A model generated the notes under the pieces. It ran no database searches, was not told where the DNA came from, and saw only the letters and a list, made by a program, of their open reading frames with translations. Of a stretch of DNA of 64,000 nucleotides, positions 7,935 to 58,283 are shown piece by piece. Made by a program: the position numbers and the translations under genes. Origin of the DNA: Callorhinchus milii. Taxonomy: Eukaryota. The stretch spans positions 93,622,001-93,686,000 of the forward strand of contig NW_024704742.1 in assembly GCF_018977255.1 (NCBI RefSeq), written 5' to 3'. The stretch's first letter is position 1. Each line of letters opens with the position of its first letter.

Positions 7935-8253
7935 GAGTCCTGTAGCTCAGTGGTTAGAGCACTCGCTTTGCAAGCGAGAGACCTGAGTTCAATTCCAGGC
8001 AGGGCGAAACCTTGGCAAGTTTCCTTACTCCACACAGAGCCTAATAATAATCCCTCCAAAAACAAAAAAAATAATAAATTGGTCATTTTCAATCCACGAC
8101 TGTTTGTGGGACACTGCGGTGTGCAATTGGCTGCCGCGTTTGCCCACAAATATACAGTCAATTCACTTTACAGTGTGTTGTGTGAAGCGCTTTGGGACGT
8201 CCTCCTGACGTGAAAAGCGCTATATCAAATGCAAGGATTATTATTATTATTAT
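7935..8253 (+). mobile_element. Full-length tRNA-Ala-derived SINE (short form)
   Basis: Head GAGTCCTGTAGCTCAGTGGTTAGAGCACTCGCTTTGCAAGCGAGAG with a TGC anticodon-like loop. Near-identical to 37359-37676 and 57960-58283. Confidence 0.92.
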
Positions 8254-9714: not shown

Positions 9715-12379
9715 AGTGTCTCAAAGTGCTTTACACAATAAGTTACATTGAAGTGCAGTAGCTGTTATGCAGGAAAATTCAACTAATCTGCACCAGCAGT
9801 GCCACGTAAATAGTAATGAGATGAAGTGGGAGGACATAGCACAATTTCAGACAGACATCTGAAAATGTTGCTTTACCCAGAGGGTATTTAAAGACTGACA
9901 TATGTTGCCAGGAAGTTTGTTGAGACCAGGACAATAGAATAATTTATAAAACAGTTTAATGCTGTGATGGGAAATGGTAGGGTGCATCTTGTGATCTTGC
10001 CATTAAAACTTCAGCACCTCTAGCCCTGGACAAGGATTATCTTGCTCTCAATACTCCAGAGCGAGAAGGAAAGGGGACAGCTATGGTGATAGGATATAGC
10101 CATGGAAACCATGTGTGAAGAGGTGTGCCAATGGCTCACAGTTAAGGAGAAGATGGGTTGTAAATATAATGGTCACCATTGGTTTAATATATAAAAAGCT
10201 GCTTGCAAACACAAGAGGCTTGATAAAGTTAAAGGACCTTCAACTGAAAGATAATATGGCAATATCTGGATATAAGGATTGGACCACTATCACACGCTAC
10301 TGTTATCATTGTGGCTATGATACAGTAATATGATTCGCTCATCAGTGCTTGCAGACCATGTTTTTTCTCCAGTCAACCATGTAATTCGAAAGATGAAGCT
10401 TCAGAGATGACAACAGAGGAATTTGGTTGAAGCTCACCATGTTGCCTTCACCCTCCTCCGACTGTTGAATGGACCAAGTATTGCTTCAAGTCAATGTTTT
10501 GAAAACAGCTGGAGAAAAAAACAGTGTAAAAAGATTTATTCTAGCAATTTTGCACACAAAGACATCTTTATTGATGAATTATATCTACCAGGATCAGTCT
10601 GTAGAAGACAGAGCTAAGTGTGGAATTAAGAAGTCTGCTCAACAAGCAATATGCTGGAGTGTGTATTTAATGATGTTAAACCCCAAATTTTGCCCCAGAT
10701 ACAATAAGAGTTACACTTAGCAGATTAAATTGCATTTTATTTTTTGCAACAGACTGGCCAGTTTCTTTGCTGTTGAAAGGACATGAACACTTTGCCGGCT
10801 TGTTTATAGACAGGAATTTCTGGCATGTAGGCCGAGCGATCGCTGGCAATAAACATGCTGCACGCTTGGTAGTGCTCTCAACTGCACGATTGTTAAACTT
10901 GTTTAAACAGTGTGCTTGTCGAACAGTTTAAAGAGGTTTAAATCCAATGCTATAGAGAAGATCACTGTAGACTGTTGTTATGGTAATAGGGAGGGTAAGT
11001 AAAGTGCTGTGAGCAGTTATCAGAATCACTCACTGCCTCCCATCACTTCCTAGGTGCAGTGTTGTTTGAGTTGGAAAGTGACTGAGAAATAATAGCTGAT
11101 ATTCAAGCCTTCCAAGATGCTACCCCACGTGAAAGCAGCTGTATAATTGCAAGTTGTTGTTGTTGATACATTGTCTTCCATGGGAGCTGGGAAGGCTGAT
11201 GGTGCAGACAGGGCATGTTTTGGGCAGACTGTGAATGGAATAGTTCAAATATCTTTTCCTTATTTCCTGCTTTCTCATGAAAAGGGCAAAGACACAGTAC
11301 TGATGGAGAAAGGATAATGAACCATGCAAGTTTTATGCTTGGCTGTTTGCTCTACATTTATAGGGACAACTTCCTTAAATGATGATAACTATATCCATTG
11401 CTTAATGGAAGGGGGAAATCGATTGTGTGACATCAGTTGTTCTCGTTTTCCTACTACTTTGTGATGTCTTTCCTCCAATTTTCTTTCCTCCTTTAGTGCT
11501 GCTTGTATACAATTCTCCCAAACACTGGTTAGCTTCGCTCCAGGACCTTAACCAAGTGGCCATTCTTCGTGTGTGAGCTTCGACTGTGAATCGAACTGTG
11601 GCTGTACGCCTTGGCAGGTTATTCAGCAGAAAATCTCAGAGTCAAACGTAATGCAGTCCTTGCCCAATGCACTTTACACATGCACTTTACAACAAGGGCC
11701 ACTAGGTAGTAAGTAGGAGTGACAACTGGAGTTAATTTTCCCCTCTGTAGCCTAGAAGTTATGATACCAATTGTAGAACCCACTGAGATCTTCTAACACA
11801 GTATAGACCATGAATCAAAACCTGGGATCCTCAGAGTGTGAAAGGCTCAATTTCACACAAACCAATGATTTTTACCAATTAAGCCATTGGGAAAACTTCA
11901 TTGGCACTTCTTCATTTAACACAATTCTTTACTATTGAACTAAAACATAGATGAGACTCATTGTACTCTTTTGTCTTTGAACCTTCAGCTACTGTGAGTT
12001 TCAAAAGTACATAGGTATGTGAAGGGTAGAAGCTTGAAGGAGTAAGGACGGGCAATGAGACTGAATGAACACCTTGCTCTGAGAGCTGGTACACATGATG
12101 GGTCGAATAACCTCCTTCTGTGCTGGAAATGTCTATGATTCCAAACCTTCAGCCACTATGGCTATGCGCTCTTGAGCTCTTTTCCAAAGAAAATGGAGAA
12201 ACGGGAAATGAGTTGAATGAAATAGTTGGCTTTTACAGAGAACCAGTACAGTATGGCCTTCAATGCTGAAATATTCCATGATTTTGAGGGAGCAGAGGTG
12301 GCTGGTGTATCACGGTGACTTGTGTGAGTAGGAGGCACTTCAGGAGGTGAGGGGGCAAGGGCATCAAGAATGAAAGGGT

Positions 12380-13890
12380 CCTCTTCTCCACCACCAACTG
12401 GCTCCTCCACCCACCCTCTCACACTTCTCCCACCCTCTTCTCCAATTTCAACTGCAAGGAGATGCTGGAATTTCTCAAGCCAAAATCAAGGAGATCCGCT
12501 CAGCCAACTATGCCCTTCCAAGTGGTCCAGGACACTAACGCGTGTACAGGGAGCTATATAAATGCAAGTGGTTGTATTTTACCGACTTATCCTCCTCGGT
12601 CACTCTACTCTCACCTGCCGAACTGCCTACCCCACTCGTGCAAGTCACACTGGTAAACCAGTCACCTTCGCTCCCTCAAGGTACAGGGGTGTTCTGCTGA
12701 AATTTATCGGTCCATCAGCAGATCTGGCTGGATCTTATCAAAACTTACTGTTCCGCCCTCACCTCCGCTAAATCGTCCTTCTACTCCAAGATAATCTTGG
12801 AGGCCAAGGACAATCCCAGGCTCCTCTTCTCCACTATCGACTGGCTCCTCCAACCACCCCCTCACACCTCACCCATCCTCTCCTTCAACTCCAATCTGAG
12901 GAGATGCTGGACTTCGAGTCAAAATCAAGGAGATCCATTCAGCTGCTTCTGCCCTTCTAACTCCTACTCCCTCCCCATTTCCCCCTCACCTTCCTGCCCC
13001 TACCCATCACTCCCTTTGCACCTTCAAGCTTGGCTCCCCCTCTTCTCTCACCACCATTACAACCCGTATGATGAAACCCACCACCTACTCCCTCGATCCC
13101 ATCCTACCTCTCTACTTACCTCCCAGCTCTACCTCCTTGCCTCTCTACTTACAGAAATCGTCACCCTCTCCCTGTCCACTAGCACCATTCCCACTCACTT
13201 AAAAATAACTGTCATCACCCCTACCCTCAAAACATTTTCCCTGGACCATCCATGCATGCAAAGTCCACCTCATTGAGCCAGTCCGGAAGCTTGGTATCTT
13301 GTTTGACCCTCAGCTGTCACTTCTACCCCATATCTGTGCCATGACCCTCTCTGCTTTTTTCCACCTCCACAACATCATCCAGAACTCTGCAGCTCATGTC
13401 CTCTCCCGCAACAGGCTCCATGTCCCTATCACCCCTCCCTCGTCTGGCTCCACTGGCTCCCTAGCCCCCAGAGGATGAAGCTCAAAATTCTCAACACCTT
13501 CTAGGCCCTCCATGGCCTTGCCCCCTCCTACCTCTGCGAGCTGCTAATCACATACCGCCCAGCCCACCCCACCATTGGCGGTCGGGTCTTCAGTCTCTCT
13601 GCCCCCACCCTCTGGAACTCCATCCAACAGTCCCATTGCCTTGCTCCCTCTCTTGCCTCCTTCAAGGCACATCTCGCTCCTTTTCTACCATGCCTTCAGG
13701 CACCCTCCTCCCTGTACCTTTTTCTGCCCTCCATCCTCCCTGCCCTCCATCCTCCCTGCCCTCCACCCTCCCTGATCCCAGCCCCTTGCTCGAGTCCAAA
13801 TCCCTGACTATCCCATGCCTTGGAATGTCCTCCGATGTGAGGACATCGATTTGTCCACTATACAAATTTAATTTGTTGTTGTTGTTGATT
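12380..13890 (+). mobile_element. Decayed L2-clade LINE fragments
   Basis: C/T-rich sequence. Remnant peptides KDNPRLLFSTIDWLL and IPTHLKITVITPTLK, plus QNSAA and LHWLP-type motifs. Ends in the tail CCTTGGAATGTCCTCC...(TTG)n. Confidence 0.85.
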
Positions 13891-14139
13891 TTATGAAAAT
13901 CTTTTTGGCTTTTTCCTTCTCTCCCCACCTTTAAAATCTTTTCAAATAAAATTGTTAAAAAATACAGTAACATCTAATAAAATTGCTGACAAAATCACTT
14001 TGGATTCAAGTGCTGGAACTCACGACTGAACTTGAACATCTTAATATAACAAGTGACGGCAAAGTCACTTTTCATTACTCATCAGACGTTAAATACTGAA
14101 CTTTGAGCAGCATTGCTATCTAATATGCATTTTCAGATG

Positions 14140-22976: not shown

Positions 22977-23569
22977 AATAATTCTTGCATTTGATATAGT
23001 TCCTTACCACGTCTTCATGACGTCTCAAAGTGCTTCACAGAATATACTGTAAAGTGTATATGGGACTCCATCCCACGGTCCTTCACCTCACTTCCTCCCT
23101 TGCCTCCTTCAAGGCCGGTCTCAAGACCCTTCTCTTCGACCGTGCCTTTGGTCTCCCTCCCACCTCTCTGCCTTCCCTCACCCCTACACCACCCCTCCCC
23201 CATGCTCGGCCCTCGAAACCTGACTGTTCAGTGCTTTGGGATTCTTCCCTACGTGAAAAGCGCTCTACAAATGTAATTTTTTTGTTGTTGTATTGACTGT
23301 ATATTTTGTGGGCGAAACATGGCAGCCAATTCCACACAGCAGTGTCCCACAAACAGTGGTAGATGGAGTGACCAAACTATTGGAGGGATTATTACCCCCG
23401 GAAAACAATCCGCCAATCAACTAACAACCAGGTTCCTACATACTGCTATGTAAACAGAGGGGTGTGTAGTAAGGAAACTTGCCTAAGGTTTCGCCCCGGC
23501 CCAGGAAACAAACCCAGGTTCTCTTGCTTGCAAGGTGAGTGCTCTAACCACTAAGCTACAGGACTCCAC
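22977..23569 (-). mobile_element. Long-form SINE interrupted by a plus-strand L2 3' fragment (about 23060-23290)
   Basis: The SINE halves are colinear with 28411-28786. The insert encodes SLASFKAGLKTLLFDRAF and ends in (TTG)n. Confidence 0.88.
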
Positions 23570-30200: not shown

Positions 30201-33200
30201 TCTGGCTCACTCACCTACAGATCCCTTTAGGTGTTTTCCCACTCAAGAAGGTGGTGGCTCTAACTTGGTGAGCCTTCTCCTTGGTCTGTGTGACTGGATG
30301 CACAATTGAGAGGAGGCCGGGTAATGCTGGGCTCTCACTGGTCAGGTGTTTTTGGAAGGATTTTTGAGGGGAGGTACGCACATCATCAGTTTCTTGAAAT
30401 GTCTATAATAAAAGCAGCAGTTAAATACTTCATGGCAAAAGGGTTTTAAAACAAACATGATTCAATGAGCTGTTAACTCCTAGTAAGTGATTAAAGCCTA
30501 GATCCTGCCCATCAATTAGAATTTCTGATTTAATAATAATAATCCATGCATTTGATATGGAGCCTTCACATCAGCAGGGCAACTCAAAGGGCTTTTGAGT
30601 TGCCACCTTCAAGTTCCATCTCAAGACCCTCCTCTTCGACCATGCTTTCGATCGCCCTGCTTCCACCCCTGCCTTCCATCCTCCCCGACCCCCAGCTCGG
30701 GTCCGTAACTCTTTCTGTCCAGTGCCTTGGGACGTCCTCCCGACGTGAAAGGCACTTTACAAATGTAATTTTGTTTTTGTTGTTGTTGTTGCTTTACAGA
30801 TTGGGTGACCGATTTGCCGAACACCTCCATTCTTTCCGCAAGCACAACCCTGAGCTTCTGGTTTCTTGCCACTTCAACTCACCCTCCCACTCGCACTCTG
30901 ACCTCGCTATCCATGGTCTCCTACGCTGTTCCAATGAACCACAACGCAAGCTTGAGGAACAGCACCTCATCTAACTGCTAGCAATCTTACAGTGCTCTGG
31001 CCTCAATATTGATTTCAATCATTTCAGACCATAACAGCTCACCTTCCCCTTCCCCCTCTTCTGTGACCATTGCCACATTATCTAAGTCCCAGACACACCT
31101 TTTCTCTCTCTGGTCTGCCTGTTTTGTTGTAATTTCTCCCCCACTTTGTTTTGTATTATTAACACCTCTTTAACCCATCATCCCCTGTCCTCTAACCCAT
31201 TTCTCCTTTGTCTTCTTTGCCCTGCCTCCCCTCTCTCTGTTAGTCCTTAACAGCCTCGCCCTCCCAACATGCTCCAATTCTAACGAAGGGTCGTGGACCC
31301 AAAACGTTGACTCACTTCCCCTTTCTCCATAGATGCTGCCTGACCTGCTAAGTGTTCCCCTCAACTTCTGTTTTTGTTTCAGATTTACAGCATCTGCAGT
31401 ATTTTGCGTTGTGCTTTACATGATTCATTGTAAAGTCCAGTGTCTGAATTCTATAGGCAAATCTAGGGATAATTCTCATATAGAGAATACTGAACTGAAA
31501 CGCCCTCGATTTATATGTTTTAATGGATCTGCACATAACACACAATCACTCCAACATTGTATTTCACCAAGATGTGCCAGCATAATCTAGAAGTTCTTTG
31601 ATGTAAATCTACAGATTTATTAATGGTTTTTAAACAATTTTGCTTCAATGAAATTGCTGAAGAAATGATTACAAGCAGCAATACAAAAACACTCAATGAC
31701 TGTTTTCTTCCTCACCATCTTTTTTTACCTCTCCACTCCAACATCTATCTGTGGAATTTCCATGTGCTCTCAGTTTTGTTTGGATACTCTTAAGCATGTG
31801 TCAGATACCCAGCTGACAAAAATAAACCTCTCTTGAAGGAGGCAACTCTTGCTGAGGTAGCATTTTAGGGCACTGACAGTCATACAGCCCCCCCCCCCCC
31901 CCCCCCCCGAGGGAGATAAGATATCTTATCTGGATTCTGGCAGTCTATTTGATCACAGCAGCATCATAGACAAACCTTTCCTGGTACCCATACCATACAT
32001 CTACTCTTAACATACCAATATATTATACTGTTAATAATTGATATCAAAAAGAAAATGGGCAAAATGTAATAATATACCGCCTTTCATGTCAGGAAGATGT
32101 CTCAAAGTGCTTCACAGGGAAAAGTGTAGTGATTGTGTATTTTGTGAGTGAACACAGCAGCTAATTTGCACACAGGAATGTCCCACAACAGCTATGGAGT
32201 GAGTGACCAATTTTATTTGGGAGATTGGTAGCCAGAACACCAGGAGAAATTCCCTTCTCTTTTTGACTTCTGCCATGGGATCTTTAATATCCACCTGAAC
32301 AGTCAGACCTCAATATAACGTCCTATCTGATGGACGGCACCTCCAACAATGTAGCACAGCATTACACAGCTGCATTGCTGGAGTGTCCAGGATTTCCTCT
32401 TGCACACTATAATGGAATGCCAGTAGAGACTATATGAATTCCAGCTCCTGACTTTGAACTCACAACCTTTTGACTCAGAGGTGAGAGTGCTATCAGCTGA
32501 GCTAAGCTTGACACACAGTAATTTACAAACTTCCTGCAGTGACAACTGAAGGTTCTTTAAAAAATAAGATTCACATCCTTGGGTTCAGACTGAATGAAAA
32601 ACAGGTTCCACGGAAGCCCTTGCTTCCATCCTTCAGACATCCTCCACTTTGTCCAAGGACTAAGCAGAGCCTTGCTGATAAAAATCCGTATGCATCATCT
32701 TTTTGCACAGGATTTCCTCCTGGACACTCCCGATCATAGAAAAATTATTTTATTGATCTAAAAATAGCATATCGGCTGGTAATCCACTGGCTATCCTGTA
32801 AAAGCAGCTTCAGTTAGTGGCAAAAATGTTTTAAAGAGTACCAACGGAGCTCCAATGAGTTCAAACCACATCCCAGAAACTACAGGGGGTGTTTAGAGCT
32901 AAAAACCAGTTGATAACTACTGACTGAAATGCCACCATTTCAGAATAGATTTGATAATAAAATGTTTCAAATTTCCATAGCTTTGATAGGTGGTGTTAAA
33001 TAACCATATAAAAAAAATTCTCAAACTGTTCTAGTAGGTTAACATGTACTTGCTGTCTTTAAAACATGTACTGCTGCCTTTTTTATTTTCCCACTATATC
33101 TTGCTTCACCACTTTGACATGCACCATTTGACGGGCTGGCATATCCCTGGAAGTTATATGAGTTGGAAGGACAATGGAGAATGGATTGGCTCTACATCGC

Positions 33201-36200: not shown

Positions 36201-39200
36201 CTGCTCAGACAAGAAAAGCCTGAAACTGTTTCTATGATACACAAGCAACATAGGTGGATCAGAACACCACAATGAAAGTACTCTAAAGTTACACCAAGTT
36301 GACCAGGATCCAAAATAGAAGAGCTCTAATATTTATCATCAGTCTTGATTTAGAATCAAACCCAAAACACTAACCAGTACTTTTTTTCCTTCAGGAGAAC
36401 CTGCAGGAAATTTCCAGGTTCTATTACAGATTACCAGATTACAATTCTTAATTTTATCTCTTATCGCATAAAATAGATGCAGAGCATGATCTTTCTCAAG
36501 TCTTGGTTTTACCTCGCTCGTGTTCAAATTGGCAGGAATCTGGGAATACCGATTCAATTCAAACACGTCACGCAGTGCAGTGCGACTCATTCGATTTTCT
36601 GCTTTGCTGGATCCAATCACACGTTGATTTGAATGAACAAAAGCCACTTCCTGAACATCACCTGCAAAACAAATTGTGACATTTCAGAAATCCTGGCACT
36701 ATTACTATCAAAATCATTAAGTACATAACTGGAGTTTATTATTTGCCATGTGTCGATGCATATATATTTGGCATCATGTGAACAGAGGTAATTGCAAGTG
36801 TCCTTAAAAATGTAACAAAACAGAAAGAATTTATTAATTACATAGTTAACAAGATAATCATTCCCATTGTTATTGTGATAATTTAGAGCACCTGTGATTC
36901 CCTCTTACACATACACATAGTTTACACATGAGGCAGAATAGGTGTTTTTAAAAAGGGGAATGCTGCTGTGGGAAATCACAGCATTTATTCTGTATATGTA
37001 TTTTATACAAAAGTATAATTTCTCTAATTTATCTTTCCTTTAAATTTCACTCACAGTTTATCTAAACAGAATTACATTAACAAAACACTGCTAATTTTCA
37101 CCTCTTACCTTTTTCAATCAAATGAGAGGCTAACTATTAACAGAGGCAGAGAATTGATAAGTCTGGCACACTATTTTATTATTGGGATAAAATCCTTGGA
37201 TTCAATCGGAATCACCTGTAAAATACATTTAAATTCAATACATGTTCCTCAGCTTGCTAGGAATTAGCTTCTTCAATATCAATGTTTGGACTTTGTTCCT
37301 CCATTATTATGTTCTATTCCAGGGTTCACTATATAACTAATCTTCAACTACCAACTTTGTGGAGTCCTGCAGCTCAGTGGTTAGAGCACTCGCTTTGCAA
37401 GCGAGAGACCCGAGTTCAATTCCAGGCAGGGCGAAACCTTGGGCAAGTTTCCTTACTCCACACAGAGCCTAATAATAATCCCTCCAAAACAAAACAATAA
37501 TAAATTGGTCATTTTCAATCTACGACTGTTTGTGGGACATTGCTGTGCGCAATTGGCTGCCGCGTTCGCCCACAAATATACAGTCAATTCACTTTACAGT
37601 GTGTTCTGTGAAGCGCTTTGGGACGTCCTCCCGACGTGAAAAGCGCTATATCAAATGCAAGGATTATTATTATTATCAATAGTAATGTGAGGGACTTGCA
37701 AGCAATTTTAATTAAGGCATCAAATTAGAAGTGCAGATGATTTGGCACAACCCACATTTCTTTCCTTTCCCTATTCTAGCTGAGTTGCTGCACATCATAC
37801 AAATCAAGGGCTAAAGACTGAATCCACAATCTGCTCATCACTCTCACATATCACCAAAGATGGGTCGAACTCTTTCTTTCTATAGAATTCTATGATTCTA
37901 AGAGGAATGGGCTCAAATCAAGTTGGTAATATACCATTTACTGGTTTATTGTCTTAAAGCATTGTTCATTGTGGATTGCATCCAGCAGACAATAATAAAA
38001 GGCATATGTTTTAGGTCACACATAATGAATTTTACATGGAATCTAATTACAGAGAAGGCAAATTTCATACAAATCCATTTCATAAAAATACCAATTCCTC
38101 ACTGACTTCCTCACTCCCCAATCCACCACCCAGCGCCTCCGCTCGACTAGCACTGGTCTCCTGCTCATCCCTCGCACCCTCCACCCCACCATCGGAGATC
38201 GTGCTTTCAGCCCCCAAACTCTGGAACACTCTCCCTCAATCCCTCCGCCTTACCTCTCTCTCTCTCTCCTTTCAAGTCCCGCCTGAAAACTTTCCTGTTA
38301 GATCGTGCTTACGGCCAACTCCCCCTTCCCCCCGGCTCAGTCAGGTTCCGCCACTGTTAAGCGCTCTGAGACGCTACCCTGCGTGAAGGGTGCTATATAA
38401 GTGCAAGTTATTGTTGTTGTAGTATCTTTCAAGTCAGCATTGATCAAGTCTCGAAGTGCTTCACAGGATTTCCTGTAAAGTGGATTGACTGTATTTTTGT
38501 GGGTGAACATAGCAAATTGCACACAGCAATATCCTACAAACAGCCATTAATTGAATGACCAATTTTATTTGGGGGATTGGCCAGGACATTGGGAGAAACT
38601 CCCTTCTCTTTTCAAAGATAGTAGTGCCATGGGATCTTAAATCTTCTCCTGAACAGGCAGACTGGACCTTGTTTTAATGTCTCATCTGAAAGATGGCACC
38701 TACGATAATTTAGCACATCTCCAACACTACATTTGGAGTGTCAGCCTAGAGTACGAGTTCCAGGTCCCAATGGGGCTTGCATCTGATACAGAGACAAGAT
38801 TGAGCCAAACTGACACACCTAACACTATGTAGGCAAATAATTGTTAGATCTGTAATTACCCAATAACTTGTCCATTGATCCAGCCTGCTCCTCATGACTC
38901 CATTTTCTGTTTGCTCGAATGTGCTGAGGAGACCCCTCTTTAAACTTGACCCGCTTTGCTTTACCTTTAGCAACTTTCTCTGGCCTTGGCTTATGACAAA
39001 ACTGAACCCTGCTTTGTTCAGTAATAAGCCGGGTTCTTTTGATGGGAACATCTTCTCCAGATGATGTAAATTCACCAATGTTCTCAGAGTCCTCACTGCT
39101 GTCGTGGTGGGCTGTATTTTGAAGGAGTTGAGGTTTATTGCAAAAGCCTTTCCTGTGTTCCTCTGCTGTGTGTTTAGATTGATTAACCTTTTTAGCTGGC

Positions 39201-42200
39201 ATCTCTGTTGATATTTCAATGTCATCAGATTCATCACTGACGCTGTCTTCAACTATGATTTGCAGAGTGTCACTTGAGTGTTTCCCCTTTGCCAACATGG
39301 ATTGTTGGTCTAGAACACCTGCTTTAGCCCTGGAAAATCCTGAGTGTTTACAGGGCAACAAAGTGTTGTTTTTACTGGAAATGCTGGTGAATTTTTCATT
39401 ATCTGAAATTCCTGACTGTCCAGCACCTTGGGACGTCCTTCCGACTTGAAAGGCGCTATACAAATGTAATTTTGTATTGTATTGTATTGTATCATCTGAA
39501 CTTTCTAAATCTTCTGACAGGAAATCACGCCCAGTTTTCTTCTTGGCAAGTGTTTTTTTCTTTTGTTCAGCCGCCTGTGAAGGGAGGATGACATCATCAC
39601 TCTCTTCTGTGTTGCTGTCAGTTCCCAAGGCAACTGCAGCGTTCCCCGAAGTACCGGGATGCTCATGTTCACTTCTTAAATCTGCCTCGGAATCACTGGA
39701 ATCGCTCCAGTTTTGGCAAACCTTTTCTTTCGCACACAGTGTGTGTCCATGAGCAGCTGACTGGGGCTCTGAAGTTGTGGTATAGTTGAGTCTGTGATCT
39801 GCCTTTGCAAGTGGGGCACCTATAACATTGCTTGAAGTTTCTTCTTCACACTGGCTGTCAGATGATTCATTGTCTGAGCTGGAGTCATTTTCGCTGCATT
39901 CCTCTCTAGTATCTATTTTTCCCTCCAGGAGCTTGGAAAACCCACACTGGAGTAACGTGAGCTGTCCTCTCATATCTGCACTGTTGCTGGTTTCTTTGGT
40001 CCTACCTTTATCATTCTTTGATTTTGTAACAAGTGAAGGTTCAGTCTCACTGTCACTGCTGAAGTCAAATAACTGCGCTGGTTGTCCAATAGCAGATGTG
40101 TTTTCCTTTTCAAATTCTACTATTAATTCTCCATTATCTTCTTCCACATCATTTCTTGTATCCATGGTCTAAATAAAAAGTAAAAATAAAAATTCACTTA
40201 CACTGAAAATTCAACCCAGTGACACATTCAAGTCAGTTTACCAAAGTATGTACTCTGATTAAAACACATTAAAATAACCTTACACCTATTTTAATATTGC
40301 TCTAGTTTTTTTTAAAAAAAGCATGGAGTTAATCTATCTCAGCAATGTCCGCTGAACAACAATGCGATGAAAAACTAGTTGAGCCGTATTATCATGCAGT
40401 GGTTGGGATCGTTGTAACCAGGGCTATAACCAGGCATGATAGCTGTTTTCACTGTGCATGTGTAGAGCAGGCCGGTGCTCTTCCTGAGCTAAAAAATGGC
40501 CGACTTCTGGGTCATAAGATCGAGACTGAAGTCATTTCCGCTGTGCATGCATTAAGCAAGAAATTATGTCACCAGTGATCACATGCCCCAGAAGTTAGCC
40601 TTTTTTATTGTGGAAAGCTAAATTTCTGAGTGATCAGATCACCACTGAGGTCACTTCCTGTGGCTTGCCTGTGATGGCAACCCAATGGCTTGTAAATTAG
40701 ACATTTTATTACGAGAGCCAGTTTGTGAACTTAATATTAACTCTAGCTTAAGCTCTCAGTGTGAAGCTTTCTGTGACATTCTCCTAATTGAAACACACTA
40801 TTATTGTTATAAAAAGAAAGTTATAACAGGCCTGCACTATAATTAATTGAGATTTAGTGAATTTGAAGAAAAGGCAAGTAAGTAAAAGGGATTGCTCTTT
40901 CAAAGAGGTAGCACAGACCTGCTGGCCTGATTGTGCTGTAAATTTCTATGCTCCTAAATAGAATTCAAAATATCTTTTTTTTTAAAGTACAGAATCTTCA
41001 AGAACTTCATAATGATAATTACTCATGTTGTAGAACTCTACACACCAGCAGACATTTCCAGTTTATAGATAAACAACACCAGTCAGTCGTTATCTGGGTG
41101 TTCCCAGAATTGCTGTGCACACATCACCAATTGTCAAAAAGAGTTTGCAATCAAAGGCTTCCTTGGTGTCCAAAACTAGAACACAGAAATTCATAGGGTC
41201 ATGGATTGTCAAATCAGGGATTGTGTGAGAAAGTACCACTGTTCAGAAAGTAGTGAAGAGTCACAGGGGTTGTTAATATTCCCCGTCCCTCCATGGTTTC
41301 CAGGTGCAGCAACTCATGGCTGCTTGAGAAGAAGGCAAACTCACCGTTTCCAGCTTCGGCGCTGGAGGTTCTTCTCTCAATTGTGTAGCAGCTGTCATCA
41401 TTCCTGCTTCCACTTGGCCTTCCCTCTGCAACACAAGGTAGATTAGATCACTAATTAATGTAATAAACTGAACAAACCAGGTAGAAAGGTTCAGCAAGTG
41501 ATTATTCAGCACATACACCATTTGTTAATAGTCTGTCAAGCTACTCCTATTTTAATTTTGAAGTATAGACTGGCTTTTGCAACTATGCAAGATTTTATTT
41601 AGATTTTTTTGAAACCATGCTAATAGTTTAAAAAAATGTTTAGTGCAAAATTTTGATTACAGAAAATCATCGAAGGAACTTCGAGAAACGAAGAACATTT
41701 CTTAAAGAAGTGCTCTAAAAAATCACCTTGGGCAAAAATTAAGACTATGATCACAGATTTCAATAACTACTTATAATGATGGAAAGAAAATAAAAGACAT
41801 TTCTTTAGGCAAATATCTGCCCATTACCTAGTTATTTTACAAAGGGCAAAAGGACAAATCTCAAATGGTCCAAAATGGCACAACTTTGCGGTCTTCCTCA
41901 ATAAATATAAACTACTATATTTTGGGTTATAAACCAGAGCTCATTCAAAATACTTAAATAAAATATATTACTCAGAGTACAATGGAAGTTCACTTTCTGG
42001 CCACTTCAGTAATGAGAGCAACTCAATATTCAGGCCCAGTTTTCATTCAAAACTGATGGCGACTTAAACCCCAAACTCACTGATAAGGGCAAATTAGACC
42101 ATTTTATTGACTCACTTAGTAGTGCCCTTATTAATTTCCACTGTACAATAATGTAACTATCGTGTATTATCATTACGAGTAAGTCTGGACCTCTGCAGAA

Positions 42201-45200: not shown

Positions 45201-48200
45201 CAACAGGACAGAGTTGACTCGGATATTCTGCTCGATGACTTGGGGGGGGGCAGGAGAATTTTTGCAAGATCTTTCAGATGGGTGAAGTCAAGTTTATGAA
45301 GGGGTAGATTGTACTTAGTCTGTGGAAGGAGCAGACTTTCTGGGCTACATGTTACCTATTAATTAATGAAATAAATTTTATCTAAAATTAATATTGTTGA
45401 TGTAGTGTAATTTAGTAAACGTATGTAAACTCCTGCATCAAAACTAACATTGTTTCCAATATTAATAATCATCAAAACCCTGCTGCTGCATGCTTCCTAG
45501 TGGCCACCAGCAGGCTAGTTTCGGAGAAGTATATGAATAGGTCATCTGCTCTTTTTCTTACTTGTCGGGAAGGTCGAATGGCCCAAAGAGGAAACAATAC
45601 AAGACTCCCAAAAAACAAAGAAAGCACATGCCTGTCAATAGCCTGCAAGTCATTAGCTGGATTCCATGTTGCGTCAAACATCACAACAATATTTGCTCCA
45701 ACGAAATTCAACCCCAAGCCACCAGCCCTGCAACGAAAAATACATTGTAAAATGCAAAACTGGCCATTTATAGACAATTAGAACTAGAAATGTAAAGACA
45801 TTAAATAATAAAAACATATCTAAAATTCTACTCCTTACATTGTGGACACCAAGCAAATGTTAATATCTTGTGTGCTGTTGAATTCCTTCACTATCCTGAC
45901 CCTTTCCTCGCTCTTAGTTCCTCCATCAAGTCGACGATAATCCAACCCAGCTGCCATGCAGTATTTCTCCAACACATCCAGAAGCTGATGGAAAACAATA
46001 CATTTTTATAAATAAGTGAAGGCAGTTCAGACAAAATTGCACATGATCATTTCCTGTATAGGCACCTAAGGAAGCATCTTTTCAACTGATTACTTTTTCT
46101 GGAGGGGAAAAAAAAATGTTTGCCAACTCTCCTTTAAACTTTTTATCTCAGCTTTCTTCCAGTTCTACAACATCCCCTGTCTCTGCCTCATTCCCAATGC
46201 AGCTGAAACACTCATCGATGTATTTATCACCCCCAGAGCTGACTTTTCCAATGCCTTTATCAATGGATTAAATGCTATGGTTTCTGCTTCTCTTGCTTTC
46301 CAATATAAAAGGCCAAGAATGCCATTCAAAGTTAGGACTATCACATAAAGCAAGTTAAATGTCCAAATAAAATGTTTAATAGAACTATTAGTTGTATAAT
46401 TTATTTTTCTCTTTTCCTGTTTTAAGTGCCTGGTTTTCATTTGAACGCTACCAAAGTGGCTTGACTGAAATTCACCAATCAGTACAGTATGATGCTGGAT
46501 CCCTGACAGTGGCTCTCACTGAGGCATTGTTTGAGATTGTGACCTTGACAAATGGTTAGTGAGTAGCAGCACTACACCACAGCTATAACTGTACTATCAG
46601 TTATCTTCTTATTGTCACATTTTCTCTGTGGCAGTAAAAGATTTCTGGGAGATTAATCTTCATTTACTTGGATTCTTCAGAGAGCCTTTAGATCCCCTTG
46701 GCTGCTGAACTATTTTATCACAAATCATAATTTTGCTGAAACACATCCAACATAATATTATAAATCATATTGTAATAAATAGACACCACCTAATGTTTTG
46801 AGCCAACTGTACAATAAAAAAAATACATTGTACTGCTTTTGTTTTCAAATGAAAATTATGTAGGACCACAATATGTTTTGGCATGATTAAGACATTTGTA
46901 ATGTTTTCCATTTAGAAATAATCAGTGTAAATTACACAAAATTTGCATTAAAACACAAGAAATACCCACATTACTATACAACCAGGTCTTAACCATGGCA
47001 TAATTCCTCCTTTTTAGTGTAGATAGAAATGCCTATTAAATATGCACTCATTGTCCCTTTCTACAGTGTATTCTAAGTATGCCTTTAAAATATGGCTCAC
47101 ATGGTTATATGACCAAGTGACCAGCACCAGGACAGATGTGTAGGTGAATGACTATACAACCAGGTCTTAACCATGGCATAATTCCTCCTTTTTAGTGTAG
47201 ATAGAAATGCCTATTAAATATGCACTCATTGTCCCTTTCTACAGTGTATTCTAAGTATGCCTTTAAAATATGGCTCACATGGTTATATGACCAAGTGACC
47301 AGCACCAGGACAGATGTGTAGGTGAATGACAACAATAACAACTTGCATTTATACAGCGCCCTTCACGTGGGGTAGCATCCCGGGACGCTTCACAGTGACG
47401 GAGTCTGACAACGAGCCAAGTGAAGAGGGAGGGGGGGAGGTGACCTTAGGCATGATCAAAAGGGAATTTCTTTAGGTGGGATTTCAATGTGGGGAGGGAA
47501 GGGGCAAGGTGGAGAGATTGAGTTGCAGTTTCAAGGTGTAGTGGCTGAAGTCATGGCCACTGATGGTGGAGCGGAGGAGGTGATGGACAATTAGGAAGCC
47601 AGAGCCAGGCAAGCAGAGGCAGTGGGTGGTGGAGTTGGGGGTAAGCAGGTCGGATAGGTAGGGAGGTGCGAGGGAATTAAGTGATTTGAAAACAAGTGAG
47701 AGGATCTTAAAGTCGATCCGTTCGGTGATTGGGAGCCAGTGGAGCCTCGCAAGGACTGGTGTGATGGGGGTACAGAGCCTTCAGCTCCCCTCTCGACTCT
47801 CTACCCCCTCCTCGCTCCCTCCCTTCCCTCCCCTCACCCTGACCATTTCCCCCCTGCTCAGGTCCTGACCCAACTGTACAGCGCCTTGGGACGTCCTCCT
47901 GACGTGAAAGGCGCTCTATAAATGGAATCTTGTTGTTGTTGTTGTTTTGTGTGGGTGAGTATCTGGGTGGTGGAATTTTGATGTAACTGGGTTCTGTATA
48001 TGGTGGAGCTGGAGAGAGCTGGAGTAAGGGGATTCTCCCAGGAGCAGACTTGATGGGCATCTTATTTATTTATCCACAGTATGTACTGCATATGTAGTCC
48101 TTGATCTTCATGTGGGTCGGCTGCCCACCTGAGGGAAAACCAGAGATGGAGCAGAGATGAAGTATAATTAAGCTTCAGCTAGCCAGACTAATGGATGTGT

Positions 48201-51200
48201 GTGTGGGGGGAGATCTGGTCCAGCAAGCATCATAATGCCAGTACCCAGTATTTTTCAAGAATGCTGAAAAAATGCTGCTACATGCCGGTACCAGCACTGT
48301 AATTGTTTGAATCCCACGAACAGAAGATAGCGAATAAGCTATTTTCTGCTGGTAGGATTCAAACTCAGTCAAAGTTGTTATCGCTGGCCACCATGAAGGC
48401 CGCAAGAACAGTGAGCCTGCCCAGCGTTGCACTGGTGAGCGCTCGGAGTCAGGAGTCTGTGGGCCCATGGAAATTTCTTGTCCAAGGACTAGTTTGTTTA
48501 ATATCTAGGTTTTGGGCCCATTCCAGCTAGGTTTGAATTCCGGATACTGGTAAGCCGAGGATCTACTGTACAGGTATTCTGTGAACTACAGCGCACAGAA
48601 AGCAGCACGTGTGCTGTAAACCAATTCATACCAATATTTGTACTAAAAAGAATTCAATGTCTGGGTGTCCAGATAACTTTGTAATCGTTACCAGTGGACA
48701 TTTGATGCAATGGAAATAAGACTACCAAAATGAATAAAATAAATTAAAAGAAAAATAATCCATTTCCTTTTCCTTAACATCTGGTGCTATACTGTATTTG
48801 AATAACTGTCCAATTAGGAAAAGACGAAAGGCAAAGCAAACCTGCTCTTAGTTGGGATTTGATCAATGTTTACTTTAAAATAAGTTACATGTGTTATTTG
48901 GAAATGTTTGCAGTATAATCACTACTATTGTGATTCTACCACCAATACTCTTACATATACAATATAAAATACACAAACCTACACACACACATAATTAATG
49001 AGACCCATGAGAGATGCCACTTCACTTGACCACAGGTTCAATGGGCTGAATGTTTTGCTCATGACACAGAATAATGTTTAATCAGTTACATGTAAGTAAT
49101 TTCAGCTGGATTAATTGATCAGCCAGATGCCCAACAGACATAGAAGCCCAGCCCCATCAACCACGCTTCCGGTATCAACTTGACTCAACTCTCACCTGTT
49201 AGAAATGCTATGAATTCAAGTTCTATGTTGGTACTTTGAGCTCATAGTCTAAGATGACACTCCAGGGCAATTCTGGAGGTGCATGGGTATCCTGGCCAAC
49301 AATCCTATGTTTGTGGGACACTGCTGTGTGCAATGGGCTAGCCTAGCCCATCATGGATCGCCTGAATGGCCCATTTTTGTGCCATTTGATTCTAACCAAG
49401 TGAGATAGGCTGATGTTTTGTACCCACATTGAACACAATGTCTGACAAGCTTCTCACTGCTTGTCCAGCTAAGATCACCCTCCCAGTTAGGGATTTGGCT
49501 TATAAAGTTAACAGGAGCTGAGTGGGACGAATCCTTGCTCCCAGTGACTGATCTGCAACTCCAAGATGTGCTTTCAGCCAAACTAAATGATCTGTCAGCA
49601 ACAGGGACTTGGAGCTCAGGAATTAGACTTCTGAGAACCATCACTGAGGATTGACTTCATTCATATATTCCGGTTCAGCTCCAATGAGATCCTGCTTAAC
49701 TCTCTCCCACCCACAAGATGGTCCTGCCTTTATTAGTTGTTTTTGCAAACATATTTTAAAATAAGCATAATTCTAAGCAGATTGTAGCCTTATGAGCAAT
49801 GAATGTAATTCAATTAGCTTGAAGCTATTTATATTCAGCTCCTTCAGAGATAGGCTACTGTAAAGAAAAATAGCATTTTATAACACCTCATCATGCTGAA
49901 ATGTCTCAAAAGTACTTCACACTTAATTATAGTCAGGTTTCAACTACTATTTTGCCCACAAAATGTACAGCCAATTCACTTTACAGCATATTCGGTGAAG
50001 CCCTTTGAGACATCTCGAAGACGTGATAAAGCACTATATTAAATGCAAGGAATAGTATTATTACAACAAGATTACATCTGTATAGTGCCTTTCACGTCGG
50101 GAGGACGTCCCAAGGCGATGGACAGTATACAGCATTTCAGACCCGAGCTGGGGTCGGGGGGAAGAAGGGAGTGGAGGGGAAGGGGGTGGCCGATGGTCGA
50201 AGAGGAGGGTCTCGAGGTGGGACTTGAAGGAGGCTAAGGAGCGGGCGAGGCAGAGTGATTGGGGGATGAAATTCCAGAGGTTGGGGGCAGAGTGGCTGAA
50301 GGCTCTCCCGCCAATGGTGGGGCGCGTGGGTTGCGGAAAGTGGAGCAGGCTGGAGCCGGCTGAGAGGAGGGAGCGGCTGAGTTGGTAGAGGTTCAGGAGG
50401 TCGCAGAGGTAGGGTGGGGCGAGGCCATGGAGGGCTTTGTAGGTGAAGACCAGGATCTTGAACTGGATCCTCTGAAGGATAGGGAGCCAATGGAGTCAGG
50501 CAAGAATGGGGGAGATGGAGTCACGGAGTTTGGTGCGGGAGAGGACATGGGCTGCAGAGTTCTGGATTATCTGCATATATATTATGTATAACATTAGGTA
50601 TTAAGGTATTAAGAGGATGATAATAGGTTAGTCTTATTTAATGTTGCCATTTTGATAATAGTGACTGGTTACCTCGACAAACATGACAACCATTTGCACC
50701 AGCAAGGACCCATAAACAGCCCTGAGGTGAATAATTAATCTGGAGGATTATGCCGAGAGAAACTCCCTTCGTGTTTTGAACAGTGTCATAGCAACATTAA
50801 TGTTCACTTGAATAAGTAGACGGGACGTTTGTTTAATATGTCTCATAATGCAGCACTACCGGGTTTCTGCACAGAAGTGTCACCTCAGGTTCTGAATTGA
50901 AATCTGTAATGTGGGACTTGAACTCAAACATGTTATAATAATAATAATAAAAAATGTTGACTATGCCATTGTAGCCGAAAGCAGTATCTAATTTGTACAC
51001 AAAAATGTCCCACAAACAGCCATGAAATTAATGAACAATTTTATCTGGAGGATTGTTGGCCACAACATTAGGAAAATCTCCCTTCTCTTTGCGAACAATG
51101 GCATGGGATCTTTAACCTCCACCTGTTCAAGTTGATGGGACCTCAGTTTAACATCACAACCGTCATGTTTATTTGAATGTCTTGTGTGCAGCCTTGTTCC

Positions 51201-56506: not shown

Positions 56507-57959
56507 CTGAAAGCATAGACAATGATTTTTCAGCATATTGTTCAGAACAGACACTGCACCATTCTGCATAAAACTACCATACTGTATAACAAGGGAGAGG
56601 AAGAATACAATAGAACAAAGTAATTAAAAAAATAATTCATTAAATGAAGTAAAGAAATATCTAATCTAAACAAAATAAATGTGGCTTTGGCAATCAATAC
56701 ATCATGCACAGAGTTAAAAACAAATAATAAAAGATTCTTGTCTAGACCCAAAGCCTTGGGCTAAAGTTCAAACTTCAAAATGTTCTTCGGACTAGTTTCA
56801 GTTTGGATTCTATCCAAAAGACTGTCGTGCTAATGCACTATAACGTTCTCATTTTTTTTGGCAGGTGAGCACAAAGGAAACAACATTACATGGATGTTAA
56901 ATGTGGCTTATTGTTTACAATTCCATTTCCACCTCCTTTTCTTGTTGGATCCCACTTGCCAACAGCTGGAAAATGGGTTGGTCCCAGTAGTAGATGGCAA
57001 TAGCTGTTAATGGAGCTCTACAAAAGAAGGAAATTTTTGTATTCGCTTGGAGTTTGCTCCCTTAGAAAATGTGTGCAAATCTAAATGAACAAATGGTCTG
57101 CTAAAGTCAGCTGCTAAGAAGTACCCGAATATGGTTAGGATCACTCATACCTCTTGAGTTTTTTTTCGCTCTTAGTGATTAGTGATTCAGCTGAGAGTTT
57201 GCAAAAAAACATGCTTACATAAAACAAATACTGTATATACATCAGCTGATGGTTATCTGTAGCAGTGTACATTTGGTGAAAATGTTTGCTTACAAAGATG
57301 GCTGCAGCAATGCTGTTTTATCTAAAGGATACCATGATTTTGTATTTTTTTGTAATTACTCTATCCTAACTAATGTCTCAATTGGCAAATTCTGGCTGGT
57401 CAATTGATGCTGGTAATGGACAGTGAGGTGAAATTGATAGTCAGCCTGGGTCATTTGGTAGCACTCTTGCCTCTGAGTCAGAATGTTCAAGCCCCATGTT
57501 AGGACTCATGGGCAGGACCAATAGAAAATTGTGGTAATAGAAAATTCCAGAGTGTTGATTGGTGCTATTGAAAGATACATTTACTGCCAACCAACACATT
57601 TTCACTTTATTGATAAAATCGAAATATGAAGAAATGTTTATGTTTGCTGGGGATTGCTGCATTGATGGAAGTTCAGATAAGACCTTAAAGCTGAATGCTG
57701 TTCAGGTGGATGTTAAAGACACCATGGCCTTATTCTTAAAGAGAAAAGAGTTTCACTGTGTCCTAGCCAACTTTAAAAACATTTTTCAAACTTTTGATAT
57801 GATAAGTACATCAAACATAAGGATTATATTACATACACTGGACAATCCTATTTCCCACCACACCAATACCATTCATGTATATTCCATAATGCCTTGCAGG
57901 TCTATAAGCGGCAATCTTATTTTAAAAGGAATCCAGTACAGCACAGCATATTGGCATTT

Positions 57960-58283
57960 GTGGAGTCCTGTAGCTCAGTGGTTAGAGCACTCGCTTTGCA
58001 AGTGAGAGACCCGAGTTCAATTCCAGGCAGGGCGAAACCTTGGGCAAGTTTCCTTACTCCACACGCCTAATAATAATCCCTCCAAAACCAAAAACAATAA
58101 TAAATTGGTCATTTTCATTCTACGACTGTTTGTGGGACATTGCTGTGCGCAATTGGCTGCCGCGTTCGCCCACAAATATACAGTCAATTCACTTTACAGT
58201 GTGTTCTGTGAAGCGCTTTGGGATGTCCTCCTGACATGAAAAGTGCTATATCAAATGCAAGGATTATTATTATTATTATTATT
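57960..58283 (+). mobile_element. Full-length SINE (short form)
   Basis: Near-identical to 37359-37676. Confidence 0.92.

Follow-up and report, generated by a model that had tools for sequence, protein, structure and literature searches.

Retroelements can insert directly and in frame into an internal exon, which is an established but less frequent way for them to enter coding sequence. In human and mouse, element-derived coding sequence is described as arising mostly by splice-mediated exonisation, in which an intronic element gains splice sites and becomes, in most instances, a low-inclusion alternative exon; L2 is among the donors, and human L2 cases located in the coding sequence, frame-preserving and stop-free, number 8 of 66 in that account (Sela et al. 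2007, PMC2394776). Alu sequence is reported in the main isoform of 11 human genes or gene groups, with 46 residues added to USP19 and 27 to NLRP1, for instance, and a disordered region as the recipient in ADARB1; these primate-young additions are exon extensions, whole exons or altered termini, 8 of the 11 affecting the C-terminus (PMC6924539). On the side of the element, zebrafish ZfL2-1 and ZfL2-2 and eel UnaL2 are described with a 3' stem-loop, a short terminal repeat and 5' truncation with microhomology (PMC4176376, PMC4245944, PMC3747384), and stringent L2 tails carry a 3' stem-loop (PMC4176376). At the junctions of zebrafish L2 inserts, either 5' microhomology, a frequent finding, or added bases are reported, and L2 duplications are reported to peak at 3-5 bp (PMC4245944). 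The labels L2 and CR1 are frequently mixed up (PMC13343379, PMC3747384), and an elephant-shark pair, SINE2-1_CM / CR1-2_CM, is given in PMC3747384.

The insert analysed here lies in the ERCC6L2 gene of Callorhinchus milii, within a 64,000-nt stretch of genomic DNA (hereafter, the window). Like the Alu cases described in PMC6924539, it is a retroelement that adds a few dozen residues to an old gene while preserving the frame, and it occupies a region predicted to be disordered, as does the ADARB1 case; unlike them, it sits in the middle of an exon, still displays its duplication and is likely far older. It shares with the exonised elements of PMC2394776 its presence in coding mRNA, but involves no splice site and is apparently included constitutively. 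Stem-loop, terminal repeat and 5' truncation with microhomology are those of the zebrafish and eel elements, whereas its duplication (8-13 bp) exceeds the size reported for L2-clade tails (PMC4245944). Our searches, which judged papers by title or opening of the abstract in a literature covered mostly outside subscription journals, retrieved no report of the shark ERCC6L2 insert and no title on a fixed mid-exon in-frame LINE insertion; an annotation of the insert may exist in supplements or repeat libraries. The ERCC6L2 insert adds a clean case to a route that is known but uncommon, and reveals no new mechanism. In the reading that we consider probable, a LINE 3' tail entered the exon by target-primed insertion before the split from a second species, sampled in one of the runs and termed organism B, and has since persisted as 31 near-neutral residues lengthening a linker predicted to be disordered.

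The host is a large internal coding exon (38860..40168, minus strand) of 1309 nt in a single open frame, delimited by an AG acceptor at 40168 and a GT donor after 38860. Its translation is 100% identical to C. milii ERCC6L2 (P0001), of whose 1599 residues it encodes approximately 721-1157, and other ERCC6L2 exons nearby follow the same order along the window as in the protein. The insert (80 nt) plus one flanking repeat adds 93 nt, i.e., 31 antisense codons with zero stops at 39398..39490 (minus strand; residues 947-977 of P0001), 27 of them derived from the antisense element and 4 from the duplicated site. Both the translation and the splice sites thus bear out an earlier, sequence-only account of this DNA (the preliminary description), which had placed 31 stop-free codons within a 1309-nt exon. 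Along P0001, the added residues follow the helicase domains (119-450 and 504-614) and precede the VIGSSK match (1162-1185) and the ribbon-helix-helix match (1263-1325). An atypical PCNA-binding (aPIP)-like motif maps to the same exon (39938..39964, minus strand; residue 789 of P0001), ~150 codons upstream of the insert, and is unaffected by the insertion; the human ERCC6L2 aPIP residues are given as Q798/L801/C804/F806 (PMC12003248). The ERCC6L2 entries of a skate (P0013) and an electric ray (P0014), of 1175 and 1244 aa, display no ribbon-helix-helix family in the precomputed list, which may reflect isoform choice or a shorter C-terminus.

The inserted sequence is a 5'-truncated LINE 3' tail antisense to ERCC6L2 (39411..39490, plus strand), with its 5' edge possibly at 39406. 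It is 82-89% identical to five copies in the window; the three copies named in the preliminary description matched at 88.9% (30715-30777), 87.5% (44024-43961) and 82.1% (47873-47950), and further matches were found at 50126-50066, 23219-23295 and 43435-43387, along with weaker copies. When the runs were compared with positions 38760-41600, ~19,700 contig pieces matched in each DNA run, with depth peaking at the insert. Longer window copies extend upstream from the tail into sequence whose translation is ORF2-like, as illustrated by an intronic copy of the same element at 50061..50495 (minus strand), where a 144-codon stop-free ORF2-like C-terminal stretch (50495-50064) leads into the tail. From its motifs, we take the ORF2-like C-terminus of these longer copies to be L2-type. 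The insert is the 3' tail of a high-copy LINE, likely of the L2/CR1 group and probably L2. The earlier label of an L2 tail holds for the tail of a repeat family, as evidenced by the window copies, whereas its choice of L2 over other CR1-group clades is putative and based on motifs. Pfam returned no family for the 31-residue peptide and none for one LINE fragment, an Atlas search retrieved eukaryotic clusters only (<0.9) and no named family, and the element fragments translated from the window include no intact RT domain.

The stem-loop ascribed to this tail is a family feature: RNAalifold recovered 12 pairs in a consensus of 10 window copies (columns 12-47), three of them with compensatory change. 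The insert holds a decayed copy of it (39422..39457, plus strand), in which two pairs are broken and folding is no more stable than that of shuffled sequences (z -0.21). The terminal (TGTAT)n microsatellite was in turn recovered by TRF as (TTGTA)4.2 at 39472..39492 (plus strand; period 5, 4.2 copies, 100%). Most window copies terminate in (TTG)n, and the (TGTAT)n tail is likely a family variant because loose contig ends at 39482-39483 reveal that other loci also match into it. The insert is closer to the ORF2-linked tail type than to a ~320-bp type ending in (ATT)n, but, at a length of 80 nt, a SINE carrying the same tail may also have been the source. The ~320-bp family is SINE-like, has its stem-loop tail in common with the LINE-type copies and is represented at 7935-8253, 37356-37684, 57957-58283 and other places, with 94-96% identity between copies. 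Elsewhere in the window, positions 12300-13910 hold a degraded ORF2-like LINE fragment that is interrupted by a large gap, includes a 191-codon open stretch (12701-13276) and ends in the same tail type. A perfect tandem duplication at 46973-47330 (178-bp unit, 2.0 copies, 100% matches), directly before the repeat copy at 47329-47770, is either a recent duplication or an assembly overlap.

We then inspected the junctions. The element is bracketed by a left copy of the target-site duplication, ATTATCTGAAATT (39398..39410, plus strand), and a right copy, ATCATCTGAACTT (39491..39503, plus strand), which are identical at 11 of 13 positions and enclose 80 nt at exactly the coordinates first described. 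The chance of at least 11 matches in 13 at one pre-set place is ~4e-5, and, among the 63,987 plus-strand sites of the window, five unrelated ones likewise reach 11/13; the flanking repeat counts because of its position, at an offset of exactly 93 nt that is fixed independently by the 31-residue gap in the protein alignment. At the right junction, the last two microsatellite letters are the first two of the repeat. At the left one, just upstream of the shared body, element copies read GGTCCAAA, in register with TCTGAAA of the left repeat, whose AAA (39406-39408) is identical to the element's own letters. Many element contigs start matching at 39406 (223 in run X6), and loose ends also begin at 39411. 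Positions 39406-39410 of the left repeat, which overlap these element-like letters, are hence readable as target, element or both. The true duplication may accordingly span 8-10 bp plus 5' microhomology, and at 39408 the mismatching letter may come from the element instead of from a later mutation. The preliminary description had taken the two mismatches of the duplication as a sign that the event is not brand new; the event is indeed old, as organism B shares the insert, but one of the two mismatches may be no sign of age, since the AAA of the left repeat matches element letters and is possible microhomology.

The duplication amounts to 8-13 bp, according to whether the 5' microhomology is assigned to target or element, and exceeds the L2 peak of 3-5 bp on any reading. 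This excess, together with microhomology at both ends, would suit a piece captured during DNA-break repair, independently of the endonuclease, instead of one inserted by target priming. We regard such capture as quite improbable, because truncation is confined to the 5' end of the element while its 3' end, including stem-loop and terminal repeat, is intact, the piece is flanked by a duplication and not by a deletion, and microhomology is described as normal for L2 inserts (PMC4245944). Under target-primed insertion, as read from the anatomy of the insert and the known L2 mechanism, the LINE endonuclease would have nicked the exon and reverse transcription would have been primed at the tail microsatellite, which has 2 nt in common with the target. 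Synthesis would have halted after ~80-85 nt, just beyond the stem-loop, and the 5' end would have annealed to similar target letters to leave the 8-13 bp duplication. The outcome at the locus is a net gain of 93 nt with a stop-free antisense frame.

To assess transcription through the insert, contigs of four of the 24 listed runs, from four studies (X2, X6, X8 and X16), were compared with window positions 38760-41600. X2 and X8 are presumed to be RNA on the basis of a splice joint (41345/40168, with canonical intron ends, CT..AC on the plus strand) that connects an upstream ERCC6L2 exon (41345..41427, minus strand) to 40168; it is present in these two runs, from two studies, and absent from the other two. 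X2 record 10 crosses this joint and reaches 39459 without interruption, so that it includes 32 nt of the insert, while X2 record 7, which covers 38858-39435, goes on past the compared region, probably into later exons. In X8, record 27 extends over 39459-39943, and the left contig ends at 39364, short of the insert. X2 depth is 44-53 over the exon vs mostly 4-14 over the intron. No single contig of any run crosses the whole insert, as expected from a high-copy repeat that breaks assembly. The left junction is crossed by 25 element letters, below the 31-letter bridging rule of the tool, and the right junction passes this rule in X16, X2 and X8, with only 28 letters in X6. Contigs of all four runs nonetheless enter the insert from its flanks, which rejects an assembly artefact and speaks against the concern, raised with the first description, that the segment might lack support in the reads. 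A recent or polymorphic insertion is not supported either: in X6, which among the organism A runs of the largest class has the lowest word share (0.88), the flanks continue unbroken into the insert and no empty-site joint occurs among those listed, bearing in mind that contigs drop rare alleles.

Two of the five C. milii database models (P0002 and P0003, from UniRef) omit the insert, jumping over it with an intron at ~39255-39497, and would be expected if the segment were normally spliced out and the 31 residues rare or absent in the protein. We consider this very improbable. The two models remove differing spans, both larger than the insert, and X2 contigs run unbroken across their proposed boundaries, with no such joint among the 15 listed of 35. 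Neither a joint skipping the insert nor a splice joint at its edges appeared among these 15, with the proviso that contigs drop rare forms. A simple scan of 39300-39560 on the gene strand found no polypyrimidine-AG acceptor and two donor-like sites, both past the insert. The three other models, P0001 (or its NCBI twin P0068), P0004 and P0070, keep the insert. The introns of P0002 and P0003 are likely homology-driven annotation artefacts, which suggests that some gene models wrongly splice around inserts of this kind. The RNA check proposed earlier for 39398-39503 thus yielded a spliced X2 contig that enters the insert and no splicing-out among the listed joints. Contigs of both RNA-like runs show a spliced exon that retains the insert, inclusion in the mRNA appears constitutive, and the protein would contain the 31 residues. 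The distances to the splice sites (663 and 538 nt), the duplication and the gap in 14 of 14 other proteins detailed below all point to direct insertion into the exon, as originally put forward, and not to splice-mediated exonisation.

The state of the site in other vertebrates was inferred at the protein level from sharks and rays plus three bony fish. When 15 proteins were aligned over their full length, all 14 from other fish lacked exactly 31 residues here, between well-aligned flanks; they comprise sturgeon, paddlefish, lungfish and 11 entries from sharks and rays, among which one catshark contributes two isoforms. This is the clean gap that had been predicted for lineages lacking the insert. 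In 9 of the 14 pairwise local alignments, one gap of 31 residues fell at the site, the other five being too diverged or ending short of it, and deleting the 31 residues raised the pairwise score in 14/14. Against the peptide, scores above 60 were obtained by 4 of 81 fetched proteins, all of them C. milii models, and the next best score was 37. An ancient vertebrate peptide is therefore ruled out, since the 77 other fetched proteins all score 60 or less and the gap recurs in 14/14; no alignable peptide in distant orthologs, which the first description had named as a potential refutation, emerged from this set. Searches for a chimaera orthologue protein returned 9 distant matches (25-50% identity) at near length, none among 968 candidates at shorter length and 3 matches among representatives, one of which is a C. 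milii model. Judged from these protein sequences, the insertion is absent from what would be the ancestral ERCC6L2.

Evidence for the age of the insertion comes from organism B (run X16). At the exon, 135 of 1323 aligned letters differ in this organism (10.2%), with several indels, against 0.1-0.4% in the organism A runs. X16 record 1 (39028-39435) extends gapless from the left flank into the insert, and record 5 (39447-40179) extends gapless through the microsatellite to the exon end; an empty site would match only 7/25 and 12/44 letters at these junctions. Organism B carries the insertion. The 11 nt at 39436-39446 are without coverage, so the exact length of 93 nt in organism B is extrapolated, and the insertion is very probably in frame there. 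Because organism B shares it, the insertion predates the split between the two, and the allele would have been fixed before that split. Shark proteins are only 35-46% identical over the exon, so organism B is likely another chimaera, and it is highly likely to fall outside Callorhinchus. Were it instead a close relative of the same genus, the insertion could be far younger than Jurassic, an option to which the element lends itself in being still 95% like the family majority. We deem this decidedly unlikely in view of the 135 differences and several indels, when organism A runs depart by 0.1-0.4%; chimaeras, moreover, probably evolve slowly. Living Callorhinchus species have a common ancestor dated at ~15 Ma (PMC11521621), and 10% divergence since then would need a high rate. 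Crown chimaeras are placed at ~173 Ma by a morphological clock (PMC11521621), and the split between Chimaera phantasma and C. milii at ~187 Ma (PMC12952989). If organism B belongs to another chimaera family, the insertion is thus possibly ~170-190 million years old or older. In the same exon of organism B, 44 letters replace 11 at 39016-39028, an in-frame gain of 33 nt.

The insert lengthens the segment that links the PCNA-binding motif to the VIGSSK region. The spacing from aPIP to VIGSSK, parsed in 18 of 20 proteins, ranges from 327 to 359 residues across 17 other vertebrates and reaches 382 in C. milii, or 351 minus the insert. Third codon positions account for 18 of the 38 listed organism B differences, which are the best-supported rows and not a random draw. 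AlphaFold, run with a 14-sequence alignment, assigned the insert a mean pLDDT of 45.5 and predicted it to be free of secondary structure, consistent with the disordered linker proposed earlier. These features, together with the in-frame 33-nt gain of organism B, describe a host linker of variable length that is under weak constraint and predicted to be disordered. Stops are absent from two of the element's three antisense frames, and the chance of a stop-free, frame-keeping outcome, once the exon was hit in that orientation, would therefore be about one in five. The tolerated insertion of the preliminary description fits the variable spacing, the preserved frame and the predicted disorder alike, and these data suggest that the ERCC6L2 linker tolerates 31 foreign residues.

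We finally weighed whether the added codons have been under selection. Compared with the majority of six intronic copies, the insert differs at 3 of 61 positions and those copies at 4-10. All three clear differences fall in third positions and two are synonymous, against 14/40 and 11/40 of the changes in the intronic copies (P ~0.04 and ~0.19, respectively, on three changes and post hoc); a fourth difference, at 39414, was excluded before this count, as the five counted copies split 2/2/1. The insert also has a lower share of acidic residues (D+E 0.03, vs 0.19 in the remainder of the exon) and has been kept in two species 10% apart. These features would accord with exaptation, whereby the same antisense LINE tail, having entered a constitutive exon before the chimaera families split (~170-190 My), became a chimaera-specific short binding or regulatory motif under purifying selection. 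Such a history, in which the readable duplication, stem-loop and microsatellite would record the birth of a motif base by base, strikes us as unlikely. The P values rest on three changes examined post hoc, the ~5% divergence from the family majority fits neutral decay since just before the organism B split, given ~10-12% in total between the species, and the peptide has neither a Pfam match nor predicted structure and is absent from the other vertebrates compared. The third-position pattern is a faint hint of more than neutrality, and the evidence for selection on the added codons is weak. Only the reading frame is clearly preserved, which points to near-neutrality. We therefore favor retention of the target-primed insert as a tolerated passenger over an exapted motif, because the linker is tolerant, the ~5% decay fits neutrality and the hint of selection is weak.

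Both ends of the insert, the empty site in outgroups, support from RNA and a second species make this an unusually clean example of direct insertion, and the choice between a neutral passenger and a new motif becomes answerable from existing chimaera genomes. Should organism B represent another chimaera family, the insert would serve as a presence/absence marker for living chimaeras and would indicate that such a sequence can stay in frame for more than 150 million years. As for variation at the locus, single-base differences within organism A occur in the exon at 39159, 39795 and 39972, the database C. milii proteins differ at two residues of the exon, and an 8-nt intronic insertion at 40620 relative to the window, present in X2 and X6 (organism A), is an ordinary polymorphism.
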